Shown: piece by piece, positions 1 to 36,760 of the stretch
How the letters are laid out: the number at the start of each line of letters is the position of its first letter
Numbering within the stretch: the stretch's first letter is position 1
IMG/VR virus record: IMGVR_UViG_3300002821_000001
Length of the DNA: 36,760 nt
Strand: one strand, 5' to 3'
Source of the DNA: a virus
The notes under the pieces: model-generated
Database searches by the model: none
Seen by the model: the letters and a program-made list of their open reading frames with translations, nothing else
What the model was told of the DNA's origin: nothing
Program-made: the position numbers and the translations under genes

Positions 1-25
1 TCATAAACCCGTTCAAATTAGCAAA
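1..25. repeat. 25-bp terminal direct repeat identical to 36736..36760 (assembly overlap of a circular or circularly permuted genome)
   Basis: tcataaacccgttcaaattagcaaa is present at both window ends. The ORF starting at 36593 reads in frame across the junction. Confidence 0.9.
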
Positions 26-10664: not shown

Positions 10665-11107
10665 CAAAAGTAATCACAAAATTAATGAATAAGATTTGTG
10701 AGATGGAGTTTCCGTCATTTTATGTGTATGACTTCATTAGCAACGATAAGGAGTTAATGCCACTTAATAATTCGCATAACTTTTTATGGTATTTGGCAAC
10801 AGATATACATTATCACACATTAGAAACAACATTAGAAGAAGCAATATTAAGCGCTTGTAGTTATGCTTATTGGTCTAAATGCGAATACGAGCATTGGGTT
10901 GATGGAAATAAGATTAAAGAAGACGGTTATTACGAGCAATTTATTCGATGGGCTTATGATGATGAAAACCTTGATTGGTATAGTTGTAAAGACAAAGAGC
11001 CGATTGGTTTAAGAACTTGGTTGCAAAATCACGCTTTAACTAAAATGTGGGAAAACGCAAGAGCAAAAGCATTAAAGAAAATTGAAAAGGAAAAAGGGGG
11101 GAAATAA
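10661..11107 (+). CDS. hypothetical protein (148 aa)
   Basis: GGAGAAAAGGA RBS, operon context. Confidence 0.6.
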   Translation: MTKVITKLMNKICEMEFPSFYVYDFISNDKELMPLNNSHNFLWYLATDIHYHTLETTLEEAILSACSYAYWSKCEYEHWVDGNKIKEDGYYEQFIRWAYDDENLDWYSCKDKEPIGLRTWLQNHALTKMWENARAKALKKIEKEKGGK

Positions 11108-11532
11108 TGGAAATTAAGTTTGTAGTAATTGGAGAGCCATTTGGCAAGAAACGACCACGAGCAAGGGTTATCGGCAAACATGCTTCAGTTTATAATGACC
11201 CAGCCAATCAAAATTACGAGTTAAAAGTAGTCAATGCGTTTAATCAAGTGTATCATGGCGAATACCCGATGTTTGACGAAAAAGCGTTTGTAAGAGCGGG
11301 CATTAGAGCCACATACACGATACCAAAGTCATTTAGTAAAAAGAATAGAACATTGGCGTTGCTTGGCTATCTTAAACCCACAAAGAAGCCCGATTTAGAT
11401 AATATCGCGAAGACGATTTTAGATGGGCTTAACGGGTTTGCTTATCACGATGACGCACAAGTTGTTACATTGTATATCGAAAAACAATATGGCGAAAACG
11501 CACAAGTAGAAATTACATTGGAGATGATTTAA
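11107..11532 (+). CDS. rusA: RusA-family Holliday junction resolvase
   Basis: GKKRPR near the N-terminus and KPDLDNIAKTILDGLNGFAYHDDAQV, the RusA catalytic signature. Confidence 0.88.
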   Translation: MEIKFVVIGEPFGKKRPRARVIGKHASVYNDPANQNYELKVVNAFNQVYHGEYPMFDEKAFVRAGIRATYTIPKSFSKKNRTLALLGYLKPTKKPDLDNIAKTILDGLNGFAYHDDAQVVTLYIEKQYGENAQVEITLEMI

Positions 11533-12011: not shown

Positions 12012-12121
12012 TGGAAAACGAACTCACTAGACGAGAAAAGTTATTTGTATTAGTGATATGGTTGATATCGGTATCGGTAATCGTGGCACACATTACTTTG
12101 GGTATATTGGTATTTGCCTAA
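12011..12121 (+). CDS. small single-pass membrane peptide (36 aa)
   Basis: TAATG coupling. MENELTRREKLFVLVIWLISVSVIVAHITLGILVFA has a charged N-terminus followed by one TM helix. Confidence 0.4.
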   Translation: MENELTRREKLFVLVIWLISVSVIVAHITLGILVFA

Positions 12122-12124
12122 CGA

Positions 12125-12153
12125 TTGACAATTAGATGACACGGTAGTAATAT
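12125..12153 (+). promoter_or_regulatory. candidate promoter TTGACA-17-TAATAT (a TATAAT is also present at 12151)
   Basis: Consensus -35 at 12125..12130. Two overlapping -10 options. Confidence 0.4.
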
Positions 12154-12159
12154 AATAAT

Positions 12160-12346
12160 GTGGGTTGGCGATTGTCTATTAGACAACAATAAGTCCATTG
12201 CCGAAAAGGAACAAATTGGCAGTCCCACACCAGATATGGTCTTTAAGATATGGTCTTTAAGATAATGGCAGGTAAGATAATGACTTGGCAGTTTAACCGC
12301 CGAGAACAAGGGTTGATGGGTTTGATATCCCTCGCCCTTTTCTTTT
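12160..12346 (+). ncRNA. candidate ncRNA of about 185 nt containing four 14-15-nt tandem repeats and ending in an intrinsic terminator
   Basis: No RBS-supported ORF. Repeats GATATGGTCTTTAA x2, GATAATGGCAGGTAA, GATAATGACTTGGCA (12233..12290). Terminator GGG..GGG-loop-CCC..CCC followed by TTTTCTTTT (12310..12346). Several U.G pairs work only on the + strand. Confidence 0.35.
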
Positions 12347-12370
12347 ATGATATAATGTATTTAACAAATA

Positions 12371-12390
12371 GGGTGGCAACACCCCTTTTT
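12371..12390. terminator. GC hairpin GGGTG-GCAA-CACCC with T-run (+ strand); may act bidirectionally
   Basis: Stem 12371..12375 pairs with 12380..12384, then CTTTTT. On the minus strand it follows the tRNA-like gene (UAUUUGUU tail). Confidence 0.5.
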
Positions 12391-12398
12391 ATTTATCT

Positions 12399-12472
12399 TG
12401 GTGGAGTAGATGAGAATTGAACTCATATTCTTGACACGATTTAATCACATCAAGTCGATACCTTACTACCCC
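12399..12472 (-). ncRNA. 74-nt tRNA-like RNA with alanine identity elements and tmRNA-TLD-like features (no canonical D or anticodon arm)
   Basis: RNA sequence: GGGGUAG-UAA-GGUAUCGAC-UUGAUGUGAU-UAA-AUCGUGUCAA-GAAU-AUGAG-UUCAAUU-CUCAU-CUACUCC-A-CCA. It has a 7-bp acceptor stem with G3.U70, A73, a canonical T-arm and an encoded CCA. The central 11-bp stem has three G.U pairs that are valid only on the minus strand. Confidence 0.55.
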
Positions 12473-12501
12473 ATAATCTTTAATTATAACATAGTATTTT
12501 T

Positions 12502-12666
12502 ATACCCCCCCCTATGTCTAGAAATGTGAAATATCGTTTATTTTTAGGCACATTTTTATCACACATCGTTTTTTATTATACCAAAATAAATAAAAAAAAT
12601 ATGGGATATCTGGGGCTTGGGCGATTTTCACATACAATTTTGTGTCGGCACTCTTGTCAAGTAAAA
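12502..12666. repeat. non-coding element copy A (homologous to 35004..35165)
   Basis: Shared blocks at equal spacing: ATAC(7-8)TAT, a 19-bp identical stretch aaaaaaatatgggatatct (12593..12611 and 35093..35111), atacaatttt, and ttgtcaagtaaaa. Confidence 0.8.
12575..12583 (-). promoter_or_regulatory. extended -10 promoter TGgTATAAT on the minus strand, reading toward the tRNA-like gene
   Basis: Same TGGTATAATAA motif as the + strand promoters at 8734, 16564 and 32701. A/T-rich UP-like tract upstream. About 95 nt upstream of the tRNA-like 5' end. Confidence 0.45.
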
Positions 12667-12744
12667 GACATTTACAAGCACCCTAATAATGGGCTTCAAT
12701 CGTCTTTTTAATTGGCTTGATTGATTGTGATTGATTGCTTTCAT
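12628..12744 (-). CDS. basic micro-ORF A (38 aa)
   Basis: GAGGTG RBS 6 nt before the ATG. MKAINHNQSSQLKRRLKPIIRVLVNVFYLTRVPTQNCM. Stops at the same aligned position as micro-ORF B. Confidence 0.4.
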   Translation of the reverse strand: MKAINHNQSSQLKRRLKPIIRVLVNVFYLTRVPTQNCM

Positions 12745-12825: not shown

Positions 12826-12853
12826 TTGACATCTAAAAAATGGCAATTATAAT
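12826..12853 (+). promoter_or_regulatory. near-consensus promoter TTGACA-16-TATAAT
   Basis: -35 at 12826..12831, -10 at 12848..12853. Confidence 0.7.
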
Positions 12854-13883: not shown

Positions 13884-15395
13884 GACTCTGTAAGATTAAA
13901 GGTGGAAAAAGGTGGAATGAGTCGTCCACCCCATCAAAACTGTAAGATTTAAAGTGGGGAGCTATGATAGAGAATATCATGGCTCTTTTCTATTGGGTTT
14001 GTTGTTGGAAGAAATAAGCAAAGCGCGTTTTCTAAACCTTTCGAAATTGTGATAACCATAGGCAGCTTTAATGATAGTTTTGAGGTGATTGTTCGCACCT
14101 TCGGCGATGGAGTTAGTGTAGCGACGATGGCCTTGAGAACGGGCGAGACCATTAGCGATTTCAAATCGCCATTTGTGGTAAGTACGACCGACAGAAACGA
14201 GAAGCTCGTTGCCTGAATCAATCAATCGTTTCGAGATGCGAATGATAAAATTAACCGCATCTTCATAATGATGATATGAATCGTATTTATAGAGTTCTTG
14301 GAGAATGTTGTAACCATTCCAAAGCGGTTCACTAATCTTGATGCATTTGAAGACCATGTCGTCATAGTGAACGATCTCTCCGGTGCGTTTATAGGTATAG
14401 AACTTGTCGGGAAGTTTGCTGTAACGACATAGAAATAGCTTCCAATGTGACTTCATGAAATTGTAGATGTTGGTTCCCTTACCAGCGACGTTGTTCATCG
14501 CCCTGGTTCTTAGACGATTGACAGCGTTGGTCAACTGAGTGATGACGTGGAACCAATCGATGACATGCATGGCTTTGGGAAAGTACTGACGGCAGACGGT
14601 GTCATAGGCCTCATACATATCGGAAATGAACACCTTGACGGTTTCCCTCTCTACGAGAGGGATAGAAACGAAATATTCGCGAAGATAGGCCATTTGACGG
14701 TTTCTAAGAATATCGATGATTTCTCCATTGTCGAAGTTGGTTAAAACACAGACATACTTTTGATCAAGCTCATTGCTGAATTTGATTTCATCGACACATA
14801 ACACCCGGCTTAAATAAAGGCGCGGCACATATTTGACATTTTGATCGAACAATTCGATGGTATGCGTTTTGGAAAGATGATACTTACTAGCGATTTGCGT
14901 AAACGTCAATTTCCCCATGAAGTCGTTTACGATTAAATGTCGTTGCAAGTCGGAAATGTGAGATCGTGGAGTGATGCCTCGAAGCGGTGGCGTATAAGTC
15001 GCATGGCAGTCATTGCATTTGAACCGAACTTTCCTGACTCTGAGAATGTCTTGAAGATGATCGTTTTCCGAACAATTAATCGTGACGTAGAAGTAGTTGT
15101 TAACGTAAGCCGATTGTGATTGACATCGGGGACATTTTCGCTGGTCAGTTCGTTGTTCAACTTCATAAACGAATCCGAAATCTGTTTTTATTGGCTCGAA
15201 AGGTACATTGGAGAAATTGTCCGGGTCTAAACCGAACCTTGATAAAAATATGTTAAAATCCATAGTGTCTCCCCTATCTTTTGAATCGTTGACAATTCAA
15301 TTATAGAGGAGACCTTTATATATATAGAAACCATCAAAACTGTAAAGTTTAAGGTGGAGTGATATTTCCTTGTCCACCTTTGTTCTTACAGAACC
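13884..15395 (-). mobile_element. ISL3-family insertion sequence (1512 bp) with imperfect terminal inverted repeats and an 8-bp target duplication TTTTTTTA
   Basis: IRL is GACTCTGTAAGATTAAAGGTGGA. IRR (reverse complement) is GGTTCTGTAAGAACAAAGGTGGA. TTTTTTTA flanks both ends (13876..13883 and 15396..15403). There are extra subterminal copies of the CTGTAAGnnTTAAAGTGG motif at 13939 and 15339. Confidence 0.8.
13977..15263 (-). CDS. ISL3-family DDE transposase
   Basis: N-terminal zinc finger CPRCQS...C..C. LCVDEIKF, ISDMYEAY and IDWFHV motifs. C-terminal NSIAEGANNHLKTIIKAAYGYHNFERFRKRAL, characteristic of ISL3 transposases. Confidence 0.9.
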   Translation of the reverse strand: MDFNIFLSRFGLDPDNFSNVPFEPIKTDFGFVYEVEQRTDQRKCPRCQSQSAYVNNYFYVTINCSENDHLQDILRVRKVRFKCNDCHATYTPPLRGITPRSHISDLQRHLIVNDFMGKLTFTQIASKYHLSKTHTIELFDQNVKYVPRLYLSRVLCVDEIKFSNELDQKYVCVLTNFDNGEIIDILRNRQMAYLREYFVSIPLVERETVKVFISDMYEAYDTVCRQYFPKAMHVIDWFHVITQLTNAVNRLRTRAMNNVAGKGTNIYNFMKSHWKLFLCRYSKLPDKFYTYKRTGEIVHYDDMVFKCIKISEPLWNGYNILQELYKYDSYHHYEDAVNFIIRISKRLIDSGNELLVSVGRTYHKWRFEIANGLARSQGHRRYTNSIAEGANNHLKTIIKAAYGYHNFERFRKRALLISSNNKPNRKEP

Positions 15396-16622: not shown

Positions 16623-18455
16623 ATGGAAGAAAAGAGTAAGGCAGAAAAAATAGCGTGGGATAAAAAGGCGAGTAAGCCGTATAAACCATATAAAGCGTAT
16701 AAAGCAAAAGCGGGTAATGAAAATCGGAAGATGTATAATGGGGTGTATCGGCGGAGTGAGATATCGAATAATATAGCGCAGAAGAAAAAAGAAGCGCCGG
16801 ATATTGATGAGATACTTGAAGTAAAGATAAAGACGGCGGTAGAGGAGAATAAAGAGAGTTGGAATAAGGCGTTCGATGAGATACGGGCGTTGGTATCAAA
16901 AGAGGGACGGGCGTGGGATAAAGTAAAAGATAATGAATTAGTTGAAGAAAGATATAAGGCGCTGGTAAAAGAGAAGGCGCATGATAGTTATTTGAATTAT
17001 GTAAGGTTGACGAGCAAAAAGTTGATAGAAACAAGGTTTCATTTGTTTTTGGCGATGTTGGCACAAGAGGTAATGGATAAAGCGGAGATGGGTTACGACC
17101 AACGGATTACGATATCGTGTCCGCCACGTGCTGGTAAATCAACAATGATAGCACGGCGTATGCCATCTTATTGGTTGGGACGCCATCCAGACGTTGAGGT
17201 TATGTGCTTGTCGGCAGATATCGAGTTGGCGACTGATTTTGGCGATAATAATCGACAAACCGCTTTAGACGTGTGGAAAGACGTGTTTGGTATTGAGGTG
17301 TCAAAAGCGTTTAAGTCCAAACATTCGATTGGCGTTGATGGGAATAAGGGCATAATGCGCTTTCGTGGCGTTGGTTCGACAAATGTTGGTAAAGGCGGTA
17401 ATATGATTATTGTTGATGACCCATACCCAGATGAGGAGTTTGTTAATAATGCAACGCAACGCAAAAGGTTGCTGTCGGCATTGGAGAACGATATCTTTTC
17501 TCGAAGTGAAAGAAAGAAGTATGATGATAAAGAACTTGGTTCGATTATTTTTATCATTCATACTCGTAGACATGAAGAAGATTTGATTGGCGTGTGTGAT
17601 AAAGTTTACGTTAGGGCGGAAGAAAGTCCAACGGGAGTAGCGTTTAAGCGTTGGTTAAATGTTACAATACCAGCGATTGCGACATCAACTAATGACCCGT
17701 TAGGTCGTAAAGTTGGCGAAGCGTTAATGCCAGAGATGGGATTTGCTTGGACGATAAAAGGTCTTAATCTTAAAAAGGCAGAGGTTGGAAGTCGTGCGTG
17801 GAATAGCCAATTTCAGCAAAATCCAATGACCGAGCATGGAAATTACATTAAAAAAGAGTGGTTGGAAAATACATGGTCTTATGCCGAATTACCCGTTGTA
17901 TTTGATGATATTATATTGTCGTGTGATTTGTCTAATAATGCTAAATCGACAAGCGATTATTCGGCGTTTCAAGTGTGGGCTTCATGTGGCGTTAAACATT
18001 ATCTTTTAGATAGAGGAAAAGCAAGAAGGACTTTTAATGGGCAGATAGAGATAATGCGTCAGTTTGTCGATAAGTGGGCAGCGAAAGGACATCCAATTAG
18101 GAAGTTGCTTATTGAAAAACGGGCAACGGGAGAAGCGGCGGTTGAGTTACTTAAAACGGAGATGAAACAAGTGGCGGTTATTGGATTTGATGTTGGTTAT
18201 ACCGATAAAGTCCAACGCATACAAACGGCATCGCCATATTTTGAGGGCGGTAACGTGTATCTTCCGCCTGAAAAGGTTGACAATAAGATTGAGGAATATA
18301 AACAAACGATGATGTTATTTCCAAGCGTTAGTTTTGATGATGAAGTTGATGCGACAAGTCAATACTTTATCTATCGCATTAAGCAAACAAGTGGTAAAAT
18401 GGTAATAGATAAAGATGGTTTTTATTCAAAATTAGGCACTATATGGAGAAGTTGA
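16623..18455 (+). CDS. terL: terminase large subunit with a Lys/Glu-rich N-terminal extension of about 115 aa
   Basis: Walker A CPPRAGKST, Walker B GNMIIVDDP, C-terminal nuclease-type acidic motifs (ILSCDLS, FDDEVDA). The homologous TerL core starts near aa 118. Confidence 0.9.
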   Translation: MEEKSKAEKIAWDKKASKPYKPYKAYKAKAGNENRKMYNGVYRRSEISNNIAQKKKEAPDIDEILEVKIKTAVEENKESWNKAFDEIRALVSKEGRAWDKVKDNELVEERYKALVKEKAHDSYLNYVRLTSKKLIETRFHLFLAMLAQEVMDKAEMGYDQRITISCPPRAGKSTMIARRMPSYWLGRHPDVEVMCLSADIELATDFGDNNRQTALDVWKDVFGIEVSKAFKSKHSIGVDGNKGIMRFRGVGSTNVGKGGNMIIVDDPYPDEEFVNNATQRKRLLSALENDIFSRSERKKYDDKELGSIIFIIHTRRHEEDLIGVCDKVYVRAEESPTGVAFKRWLNVTIPAIATSTNDPLGRKVGEALMPEMGFAWTIKGLNLKKAEVGSRAWNSQFQQNPMTEHGNYIKKEWLENTWSYAELPVVFDDIILSCDLSNNAKSTSDYSAFQVWASCGVKHYLLDRGKARRTFNGQIEIMRQFVDKWAAKGHPIRKLLIEKRATGEAAVELLKTEMKQVAVIGFDVGYTDKVQRIQTASPYFEGGNVYLPPEKVDNKIEEYKQTMMLFPSVSFDDEVDATSQYFIYRIKQTSGKMVIDKDGFYSKLGTIWRS

Positions 18456-34094: not shown

Positions 34095-35003
34095 ATGAAA
34101 AAACAAGGAATATTACCATACATTAGTGGTCTTATCACGCTTATAACGATTTTAACTTACGTTGGAATATTATTCATAAATGGGATTTATTTTAGTGCCG
34201 AGCAACAACCAATCGTCATATTTATAAGCGGAATTACAATACTTTCAATCTTTGCTAATATGGTGTCATATTGGTCTTTAGTCGAGCAATTAGTATTAGA
34301 TAGTGATGAGATTGTAAAAGCATTTAATGAGTATGATGATTATGTTAGAGATAATATTAAAGATACTTATGATTTTGATAAGGTAATAAATGAAGAATAT
34401 AATGCGTCAAAACGAGAACAAAAGCACCAACAAATTTATAATAAACTATTGTCAAAAGATTTTTTATTAAAGCATTACAATCGCGTTATCAATCGAAATA
34501 TGCCTAAAATAAGATTTGTTGAAACAAGCAAATATTATAAAAACAAAGAAAAAGTTTTAATTAGTCTTAAATCAAAAGTAGAACAATATATGTTTAAGAA
34601 AGATAGACGAGAGCAATTTTTGAATATGGTTTCCATAACTAAGTCTATTCGTTATCATCGCGTATCACCACATAATATTTTCACTAGAAATAGCACTAAA
34701 AATGACTTTGCTGACGGAATTAATAAGTTAGGTCGTCATCGTAATTTATTTTTAATCACTAGAACAATATCTGCAACTGCTACAACTTTCTTCCCAATCA
34801 TCTTTGTATTTTCAATTACTGGGCAAATAAATTCATCGTATATCGTTCCTATTAGTTTAGGTCTTGTTGCCGTTATAATTACAATATTACAAACAATTAT
34901 ATTTTCAAAACGATTTACAAAAAATGATACGATTGATTATCTTAATGATTTATTTTATATTTGTAAATGGTATGTTTCTTTTAAGTTAAAAGATAAAAAA
35001 TAA
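34095..35003 (+). CDS. membrane protein with 2 TM - soluble basic domain of about 150 aa - 2 TM architecture (302 aa)
   Basis: AAGGGGAA RBS. Hydrophobic pairs at both termini. Confidence 0.6.
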   Translation: MKKQGILPYISGLITLITILTYVGILFINGIYFSAEQQPIVIFISGITILSIFANMVSYWSLVEQLVLDSDEIVKAFNEYDDYVRDNIKDTYDFDKVINEEYNASKREQKHQQIYNKLLSKDFLLKHYNRVINRNMPKIRFVETSKYYKNKEKVLISLKSKVEQYMFKKDRREQFLNMVSITKSIRYHRVSPHNIFTRNSTKNDFADGINKLGRHRNLFLITRTISATATTFFPIIFVFSITGQINSSYIVPISLGLVAVIITILQTIIFSKRFTKNDTIDYLNDLFYICKWYVSFKLKDKK

Positions 35004-35165
35004 TACCCCCCCTATATTCACAACTTATTAAAATTAAAATATTTTTATGAGTAAATAACTTCATTACATTTTTCCTACAAGCATTATCAAAGAAAAAAAT
35101 ATGGGATATCTAGGCTTAAGTTAAATTCTATATACAATTTTTGAAATTGACATTGTCAAGTAAAA
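35004..35165. repeat. non-coding element copy B (homologous to 12502..12666)
   Basis: See copy A. Begins directly after the 34095..35003 stop codon. Confidence 0.8.
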
Positions 35166-35250
35166 CCACTTGACATGCCCTTTGATGACGTGCTTTTCTC
35201 GTTTGTAGACTGTGCCAGGTTGAGCGTTGTATTGCTCGTATTTGTTCCAT
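35128..35250 (-). CDS. basic micro-ORF B (40 aa)
   Basis: AAAGGGGTG RBS 3-5 nt before the ATG. MEQIRAIQRSTWHSLQTRKARHQRACQVVLLDNVNFKNCI. C-terminal NC(I/M)-stop aligns with micro-ORF A. Confidence 0.4.
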   Translation of the reverse strand: MEQIRAIQRSTWHSLQTRKARHQRACQVVLLDNVNFKNCI

Positions 35251-36592: not shown

Positions 36593-36760
36593 ATGAAAAA
36601 AAGTCCGTTATCTAATATAGTAGCAATGTTAGGAACTATCGCTGGTATGACCGCTAATACACCTAGCCACTCATATAATCAAGCAACCGAAACTTATTAC
36701 AAAAAGGGCAATAGTTATTGGTATAAACATGGTAATCATAAACCCGTTCAAATTAGCAAA
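36593..36760 (+). CDS. small ORF (64 aa in total) continuing across the circular junction to 52
   Basis: AAGGAGAAA RBS. N-terminal hydrophobic segment LSNIVAMLGTIAGM. Confidence 0.5.
   Translation, partial: MKKSPLSNIVAMLGTIAGMTANTPSHSYNQATETYYKKGNSYWYKHGNHKPVQISK

Follow-up and report, generated by a model that had tools for sequence, protein, structure and literature searches.

How is a tRNA-like element to be read when it offers no anticodon, and what might a phage do with it? The question is raised by a viral genome, IMG/VR record IMGVR_UViG_3300002821_000001 (the window, meaning here the whole 36,760-nt stretch of DNA that was analysed), whose minus strand carries a 74-nt element between positions 12472 and 12399. 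An initial annotation had read it as a miniature transfer-messenger RNA (tmRNA), that is, a tRNA-like domain (TLD) with alanine identity and no tag open reading frame (ORF). Bacteria rescue their ribosomes mainly by trans-translation, performed by tmRNA with the protein SmpB, and this pathway is a drug target. The analysis bears that reading out: the element is almost certainly a stand-alone gene for an RNA of ~74 nt homologous to the tmRNA TLD, with helix 2 closed as a simple hairpin, and it is a rather divergent TLD-only tmRNA of the type carried by Mycobacterium phage DS6A.

The element and its fold

Read from 12472 to 12399, the minus strand agrees letter for letter with the sequence quoted in the initial annotation: GGGGUAG-UAA-GGUAUCGA-C UUGAUGUGAU-UAA-AUCGUGUCAA G-AAU-AUGAG-UUCAAUU-CUCAU-CUACUCC-A-CCA. 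The predicted gene (12399..12472, minus strand, as are all parts of it) yields a mature RNA from G1 at 12472 to the CCA at 12401-12399, as judged from the sequence, its minimum free energy (MFE) fold and the family model scores given below. The 5' strand of the acceptor stem, GGGGUAG (12466..12472), forms seven of seven pairs with CUACUCC at 12403-12409, setting G3 (12470) against U70 (12405), and the stem is followed by discriminator A73 and an encoded CCA (12399..12402). After a UAA spacer comes a D-loop analogue without a D stem, GGUAUCGAC (12454..12462), equivalent to G13-C21 of E. coli tmRNA (ssrA). An 11-bp helix resembling tmRNA helix 2 (P2; 12430..12454) then pairs 12454-12444 with 12440-12430 (C19-G43 to U29-A33) around a UAA loop at 12443-12441. 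A 3-nt linker, AAU (12427..12429), whose middle A (12428) is the counterpart of tmRNA A334, leads into a canonical T-arm, AUGAG-UUCAAUU-CUCAU (12410..12426), with 5 bp and a UUCRAWU loop, recognised in the sequence and in an Rfam tRNA match.

All 23 proposed base pairs are standard ones, three of those in the 11-bp hairpin being G.U pairs. The MFE and centroid folds (ViennaRNA) of the minus strand both consist of acceptor stem, long hairpin and T-arm, at -19 kcal/mol (z -1.9), whereas the complementary plus strand folds poorly (-12.3 kcal/mol, z -0.3), in keeping with the earlier claim that the structure is strand-specific.

Placed beside E. coli ssrA (GGGGCUG-AUUCU-GGAUUCGA-C GGGAUU ... AAUUUC G-GAC-GCGGG-UUCAACU-CCCGC-CAGCUCC-A-CCA), the phage RNA presents all TLD modules in the same order. 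On one point the initial annotation needs correcting: it had denied the element a G18G19 D-loop, but the GG of GGUAUCGAC (12462-12461) corresponds to tmRNA G13G14 in the stemless D-loop GGAUUCGAC of E. coli ssrA. The P2-like hairpin replaces helix 2a and everything beyond it; the distance from D-loop to linker is 25 nt, all of it held by one hairpin, and there are no pseudoknots, no resume codon and no tag frame. A two-piece or permuted tmRNA was also considered and rejected, both acceptor strands lying in one RNA and P2 being closed by a 3-nt loop.

Could the element instead be an aberrant tRNA-Ala, or another tRNA, that still decodes? A permissive local search with the Rfam tRNA model (RF00005) gave 29.3 bits against a gathering score of 29, and G3.U70 and A73 are both present. 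That score, however, comes from the acceptor and T arms alone, with the D and anticodon arms skipped; ARAGORN called no tRNA or tmRNA gene across the window, and a whole-window Rfam search at gathering score returned no match. The structure itself refutes a decoding role, for there is no anticodon loop and the hairpin loop is 3 nt long, so that the probability left to this candidate is close to nil. As had been proposed, the element is not an ordinary cloverleaf. Any tmRNA-clan match to it in the local Rfam run scored below the 29.3-bit tRNA match, and its match to RF04321 had an E-value of 0.28.

A family of TLD-only RNAs

The more informative evidence comes from relatives. A pattern describing the bare architecture, GGGG-N5-9-GGWWTCGAC-N18-45-GTTCRAWTC, matched at least 120 loci in IMG/VR, and counts given over 104 refer to the distinct IMG/VR sequences among the matches listed. 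The family comprises at least 104 such sequences plus five metagenome matches. Features that the pattern did not impose are conserved, and for this reason the matches are judged real: a perfect 7-bp acceptor stem in 98/104, U opposite G3 in 104/104, discriminator A73 in 103/104, a fully paired T stem in 104/104 and the central A of the 3-nt linker in 103/104. The D-loop block GG-W-W-UCGAC belonged to the search pattern and its conservation is partly by construction; the window's version, UAA-GGUAUCGAC, keeps to the family spacing of 3-6 nt from the acceptor stem. Of the 104 sequences, 36 encode CCA, 23 contain GGTATCGAC and three have the linker AAU, a minority form. A looser pattern, GGTATCGAC...GTTCAATTC, had returned 45 loci, almost all of them chance matches without an acceptor stem, and was set aside in favour of the architecture pattern; the exact 3'-half pattern found no match in genomes.

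Structure-preserving compensatory change, which the initial annotation had named as a check on its reading, is abundant across the family. In a 43-sequence alignment with explicit structure, 97.5% of cells were paired against 70.7% in shuffles, and the covariation score was 0.647 against 0.143 in shuffles and 0.06-0.15 in slid registers. With 100 sequences realigned to the model, the corresponding figures were 97.8% against 67.4%, and 0.690 against 0.135 (slid registers 0.07-0.11). In these 100 sequences both sides change in 17 of 22 pairs. Acceptor pairs 5-7 covary with 4-5 pair types each, P2 pairs 1-7 are 95.8% paired with up to six pair types per position, and the T stem is 100% paired, four of its five pairs covarying. 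G1-C72, G2-C71, G3.U70, G53-C61 and the first C-G pair of P2 never vary, the last being present in 100/100.

Two covariance models summarise the family: R1, the family model, and R2, built from the 100-sequence R1-realigned alignment without the window or its copies. The window element scores 61.7 bits with R1 and 60.7 bits with the independent R2 (E 6.6e-14, filters off); the second-best R2 match within the window reaches 13 bits, and ordinary tRNAs reach at most 22.5 bits. R1 finds exactly one match per locus in 100 loci and matches none of their ordinary tRNAs. The bacterial tmRNA model RF00023 (gathering score 47) accepts nine typical members end to end at 51-64 bits, in alignments spanning model positions 1-374 with the middle deleted. 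Taken together with the covarying family, which includes DS6A, this supports the TLD-only reading put forward earlier.

Only four of the 121 loci have an ARAGORN call overlapping the element, in every case a 'tmRNA' of implausible length with an odd tag peptide (L048 2976-3318, L072 4100-4442, L104 5905-6228 and L156 543-1278). The 3' ends of these long calls coincide with the TLD-only element, and they are probably mis-extensions anchored on its 3' half.

Most members, DS6A among them, carry an A-rich bulge and an inner 3-bp hairpin, CCG-CAYG-CGG, at the tip of P2. To the eye, which is the only basis of the comparison, this 5' bulge and hairpin (UAAA-R-CCGCAYGCGG; family alignment A4, L046-L165) resemble loop 3 and stem 4 of E. 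coli tmRNA pseudoknot 1 (GUAAAAAGCCGC, L171 ~660-672). The likeness may point to an origin of the family in a complete tmRNA that lost its interior.

Members also occur in cultured phages whose GenBank records have no RNA annotated at the place. Mycobacterium phage DS6A (JN698994 28478-28557, L165) carries one between gp33 and gp34, scoring 66.9 bits with R1, a model that excluded it; Stenotrophomonas virus Jojan60 (ON045087 37725-37804, L172; 82.4 bits) has one neighbouring four tRNAs and overlapped in part by a coding sequence (CDS) annotated as 'hypothetical protein'; and Streptomyces phage Alone3 (OR725492 18155-18231, L177; 57.3 bits) has one within a tRNA array. A degenerate copy in Gordonia phage GMA2 (KR063281; L176 2452-2530; 27.5 bits), just upstream of a 15-tRNA array, retains an intact GGAC linker, T-arm and 3' acceptor, its 5' half being unrecognisable, and may be a decayed member. 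A match in Lactococcus phage jm2, at 19.5 bits and without the GGGG/G3.U70 acceptor, was rejected as a non-member.

The place of the gene is telling. Of 32 family loci in phages with tRNAs, 26 have a tRNA within 200 nt and 17 within 13 nt, a position inside tRNA arrays that fits tRNA-type processing and a translation-related role. Neighbour-gene clustering revealed no recurrent neighbour protein (the best cluster covers 9/104 loci, and the top clusters are generic phage genes); within the same clustering no release factor, Pth or ArfB recurs near family members and no defence or anti-defence gene is linked to them. With no recurrent phage protein beside it, the RNA would have to act through host factors.

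Genomic setting

The element comes with signals of its own. An extended -10 box, TGtTATAAT (12483..12491, minus strand), lies 11 nt upstream of G1, a consensus match read from the sequence that predicts a leader of 3-5 nt; it is missing from the initial annotation and, having no -35 box, escaped the -35/-10 scan. The distal box noted there, TGgTATAAT (12575..12583, minus strand), is present on reading the sequence and is absent from a paralogous block at ~35.1 kb. Also present is the GC-rich hairpin that had been placed just downstream: it lies at 12370..12385, 14 nt beyond the CCA, and with a U-run on either strand it looks like a two-way intrinsic terminator.

Comparison with a relative, L001, by mismatch and BLAST maps shows the two genomes to be 100% identical across exactly 12392-12669, with both flanks diverged: identity falls to 75-85% just upstream and to noise just downstream, and in L001 a different terminator follows the RNA gene. 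Bounded in this way, gene and promoter region together look like a self-contained cassette (12392..12669, minus strand), running from a TTGACA box (12660-12655) through a ~185-nt leader, both -10 boxes and the RNA gene to a point 7 nt beyond the CCA. A small leader ORF was dismissed, having no ribosome-binding site and not being conserved.

The abrupt break in homology 7 nt after the CCA is of the kind seen at tRNA- and tmRNA-associated recombination sites, and phages are known to carry tmRNA 3' fragments at attP, as Milly and Validus do beside their integrases. One might therefore suspect a functionless relic, either an attP remnant or a piece of a captured host ssrA gene in decay. Against this, both TLD halves are present with 23/23 base pairs intact, the gene has its own promoter boxes and terminator, attP-type fragments are unmatched by the family model, and the circularly closed genome contains no integrase that could be found. 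The massive compensatory change within the family, moreover, can only be a product of selection on the RNA. An origin as a relic or attP remnant, one of the refuting cases named in the initial annotation, is accordingly very unlikely and largely refuted.

Around the cassette several further features were observed. A ~360-bp segment downstream of the RNA gene (12030-12391) is replaced in L001 by ~60 bp with another terminator; it holds the two-way terminator, a 63-aa minus-strand ORF (12118-12309) and, at ~12231-12268, two to three tandem copies of a short repeat, CCAT(T)ATCTTAAAGA. The plus-strand ORF called at 12280-12420, which extends over the 3' end of the RNA gene, is probably a spurious call. 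Upstream, a ~240-nt intergenic block is present twice on the minus strand, at 12473-12700 and ~34990-35210, both copies sharing the boxes TTTTACTTGACAA, AAAATTGTAT, AGATATCCCATATTTTTTT and ATAGGGGGGG. The two extended -10 boxes are confined to the copy that precedes the RNA gene; its counterpart near 35 kb runs antisense into the terminal part of a 302-aa ORF. At 12826-12853 on the plus strand, a sigma-70 promoter of perfect consensus (TTGACA-16-TATAAT) faces away from the cassette, towards small plus-strand ORFs from 12982, and forms with it a divergent promoter region.

The first and last 25 nt of the window (1-25 and 36736-36760) are identical, which indicates a circularly closed assembly of a complete ~36.7-kb genome. 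Almost all its genes lie on the plus strand: YqaJ/RecT recombination genes, a DnaD-like loader, a DNA methylase and RusA (11107-11532), and further on TerL (16623-18455), an SPP1-type portal, capsid and tail genes. The RNA gene occupies the gap that separates the RusA block from the terminase block and is oriented antisense to the remainder of the genome; it and an ISL3 transposase are among the few minus-strand features. The closed genome yielded no integrase gene and no translation gene, SmpB included. The ISL3-family insertion sequence (13886-15393; transposase 13977-15263, minus strand) is bordered by terminal inverted repeats of 23 nt (13887-13909 and 15370-15392) and has duplicated 8 bp of its target, AAAAAAAG; it landed in the A-run of a terminator-like hairpin, and the insertion is polymorphic, L001 (2560-2780) keeping an empty site.

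Four further assemblies contain the same phage (IMG/VR 3300002446 and 3300035454, ENA ERZ27315059 and Logan SRR1313243), and the relatives found are only near-identical copies of it (L001/L168, L167, L169 and L170). No match among INPHARED phages came from near or distant BLAST searches with the locus or with 25 kb of the window; nor did the insertion sequence match PLSDB plasmids, and TerL has no relative in GTDB genomes. The portal is ~25% identical to those of Streptococcus, Brochothrix and Staphylococcus phages. The window's GC content of 35%, its TGnTATAAT promoters and the encoded CCA make a Bacillota host likely.

Possible function and known systems

What, then, might such an RNA do? 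Transcription would be driven by its own minus-strand promoter or promoters and end at the hairpin terminator, and a tRNA-like maturation, with RNase P cutting at G1, would expose the encoded CCA at the 3' end. The window RNA has the identity set of alanyl-tRNA synthetase (AlaRS), namely G1-C72, G2-C71, G3.U70, G4-C69 and A73, and the host enzyme would be expected to charge it through these positions. In E. coli, SmpB Trp122 sits in a pocket of tmRNA A15, U17 and A334, C18 and G19 stack on SmpB, and the mutation G19C abolishes function (PMC8363625). The window counterparts of these contact bases are U13, U15, A45 (12428), C16 and G17, and host SmpB would presumably bind through the UCG of GGUAUCGAC and the linker A. 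The acceptor/T-arm surface is normal for EF-Tu, which should bind there. There is experimental precedent for such a molecule at the ribosome, in that engineered RNAs reduced to the TLD bind both SmpB and EF-Tu there and take over the peptide (PMC3895274, PMC8363625).

The RNA offers no resume codon, and for this reason competition with host tmRNA is the most likely consequence. On this reading, put at slightly less than even odds, the RNA would compete with host tmRNA for SmpB and stalled ribosomes, damping ssrA tagging and trans-translation during infection, with no part for a phage partner protein. According to PMC4131195, which cites Mao et al. 2009, and to PMC11915505, a DS6A-like molecule strongly inhibits tmRNA in E. 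coli whether chargeable or not, perhaps by titrating SmpB. The initial annotation had suggested a decoy or modulator of host trans-translation, an idea that matches this proposal.

The main rival is the converse: a tag-less rescue RNA that frees ribosomes without a degradation mark, through Pth, ArfB-type factors or drop-off, supplementing or replacing host tmRNA. The sequence data do not separate it from the competition reading; we regard it as a serious if rather unlikely alternative. TLD-only constructs do accept peptide in vitro, tmRNAs without a CDS persist together with SmpB in jakobid mitochondria, where they are thought to help with incomplete mRNAs (PMC11915505), and the genes of the family lie within tRNA arrays. 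All family members strictly keep the AlaRS identity set, something that a pure SmpB sponge would not need; this favours rescue because, according to the literature, inhibition is independent of chargeability (PMC4131195). Rescue is made harder by the same missing resume codon, which would leave a peptidyl-TLD and an empty A site and call for an extra release step, and none of the genes that might supply one (release factor, Pth, ArfB) recurs nearby.

A variant would build that step into the RNA itself, as a minimal rescue device: the alanyl-TLD takes over the stalled peptide and a stop-like triplet at the P2 tip helps to terminate, one alanine being added and no degradation tag. Were it true, phages across many phyla would carry a tag-less substitute for host trans-translation. 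A stop-like triplet (UAA, UAG or UGA) does stand at the P2 tip in 67 of 92 sequences, against 35 +/- 4 expected from composition, and in the window it is the UAA of the loop. However, 27% of members lack the triplet and its place varies over a range of 6 nt, on which account it is taken to belong to a conserved A-rich structural motif; that it serves termination is highly doubtful, and the device as a whole very improbable.

Phage tRNA arrays are often interpreted as counter-defence. As family members sit in such arrays, the RNA might alternatively mimic tRNA or tmRNA as a decoy or shield, absorbing a host defence nuclease or sensor that acts on these molecules or uses an SmpB-like domain. Host t(m)RNA fragments join an anti-CRISPR complex in staphylococcal phages (PMC11662646), although this AcrIIIA1 lead concerns host fragments and was set aside as not relevant. 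The absence of any linked defence or anti-defence gene speaks against the idea, as does the strict conservation of AlaRS and SmpB determinants, which points to the translation machinery; purely speculative as it is, we consider it improbable.

Returning to the competition reading and the gene identity on which it builds, several points weigh against them. The window element falls below the RF00023 gathering score (47 bits). In the R2 alignment it lacks the inner hairpin and bulge of most members, having a plain 11-bp hairpin with a UAA loop; its linker is AAU where the consensus is GAC, albeit with the central A kept; it has U in place of A at the A15 position; and its T stem is A-U rich. This subtype was met in one phage lineage only. 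Some phages need host trans-translation, so that the gain from blocking it is doubtful. Finally, the inhibition experiment, as PMC4131195 relates it, concerned E. coli and a DS6A-like molecule rather than the window RNA. The plain hairpin is nonetheless shared by ~14 of the 104 members, all of them short, so the inner hairpin is a subtype character rather than a family-defining one. No sequence of the window subtype (G-AAU linker) came out of a metagenome scan aimed at it, and a relaxed scan yielded five members, all of the inner-hairpin type; as no divergent relative of the subtype was found, support for the window helices comes from intact pairing and family membership, not from covariation within the subtype. 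On balance, the explanation taken as a whole (a TLD-only gene, host partners and competition) appears reasonably probable.

Comparison with known systems helps to place the RNA. Bacterial tmRNA (SsrA, RF00023) has the same modules and junctions as the phage RNAs, including the G3.U70/A73 acceptor, the GGWUUCGAC D-loop and the T-arm; E. coli ssrA has, like the phage family, the C-G pair that opens helix 2a and the G-GAC junction. The difference lies inside helix 2, where bacterial tmRNA holds ~300 nt of pseudoknots and tag frame and the window RNA none, giving lengths of ~360 and 74 nt. Engineered TLD constructs (Shimizu and Ueda 2006, and a truncated tmRNA-SmpB-EF-Tu-ribosome structure; PMC3895274, PMC8363625) use the same design of a helix 2 closed by a loop, but are man-made from bacterial sequences and without a natural expression context. 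The organellar tmRNAs without a CDS, in jakobid mitochondria and two Mallomonadaceae plastids (~65 bp; PMC11915505), likewise have little beyond the TLD, a likeness drawn by description only; they serve their own ribosomes with imported SmpB, whereas the phage RNA must use that of the host. The attP fragments of mycobacteriophages Milly and Validus share the T-arm and the acceptor 3' strand with tmRNA but are 3' halves only, directly upstream of an integrase, and do not match the family model. Possessing both halves in a closed genome with no integrase found, the window element is not of this attP type.

The closest comparison is with DS6A, which overturns one earlier claim, that no phage system of this kind had been described: 'Mycobacterium phage DS6A (TLD only)' was listed by Hudson, Lau and Williams in 2014 at the latest (PMC4131195), and the 2025 tmRNA database paper restates the case, adding the jakobid mitochondrial and two plastid forms (PMC11915505); its entry in the tmRNA Website is tmID 11587 / Phage__Mycobacterium.9. 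DS6A was the only phage case found in the literature searched, the sole natural phage RNA fit to engage AlaRS, SmpB and EF-Tu yet unable to tag. The window RNA, the IMG/VR set and DS6A together form one family of tag-less TLD-only tmRNA homologues, turning a single oddity into a family open to study, with the design now seen in a low-GC phage and in at least 100 distinct viral contigs (38-76% GC), often in tRNA arrays, without a partner protein, missed by ARAGORN and unannotated in GenBank. The family model lets annotators find such genes, and the family supplies many natural variants of a minimal SmpB/AlaRS ligand. Window and DS6A RNAs are alike in being phage-encoded, ~75-80 nt long and without a tag frame, in belonging to the same covariance-model family and in their order of modules: G3.U70/A73 acceptor, stemless ...UCGAC D-loop, P2-opening C-G pair, linker with a central A, and T-arm. 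They differ at the P2 tip (A-rich bulge and inner CCGCAYGCGG hairpin in DS6A, plain 11-bp hairpin with UAA loop in the window), in the linker (CAC and AAU, respectively, the consensus being GAC), in CCA, which is encoded in the window RNA gene and not in DS6A, and in setting, DS6A being a high-GC actinophage and the window a low-GC Firmicute-type phage whose RNA is antisense to its genome. Relative to that precedent, what appears to be new is how large and widespread the family is, that its genes are placed in tRNA arrays and have no partner protein, and that standard annotation all but overlooks them.

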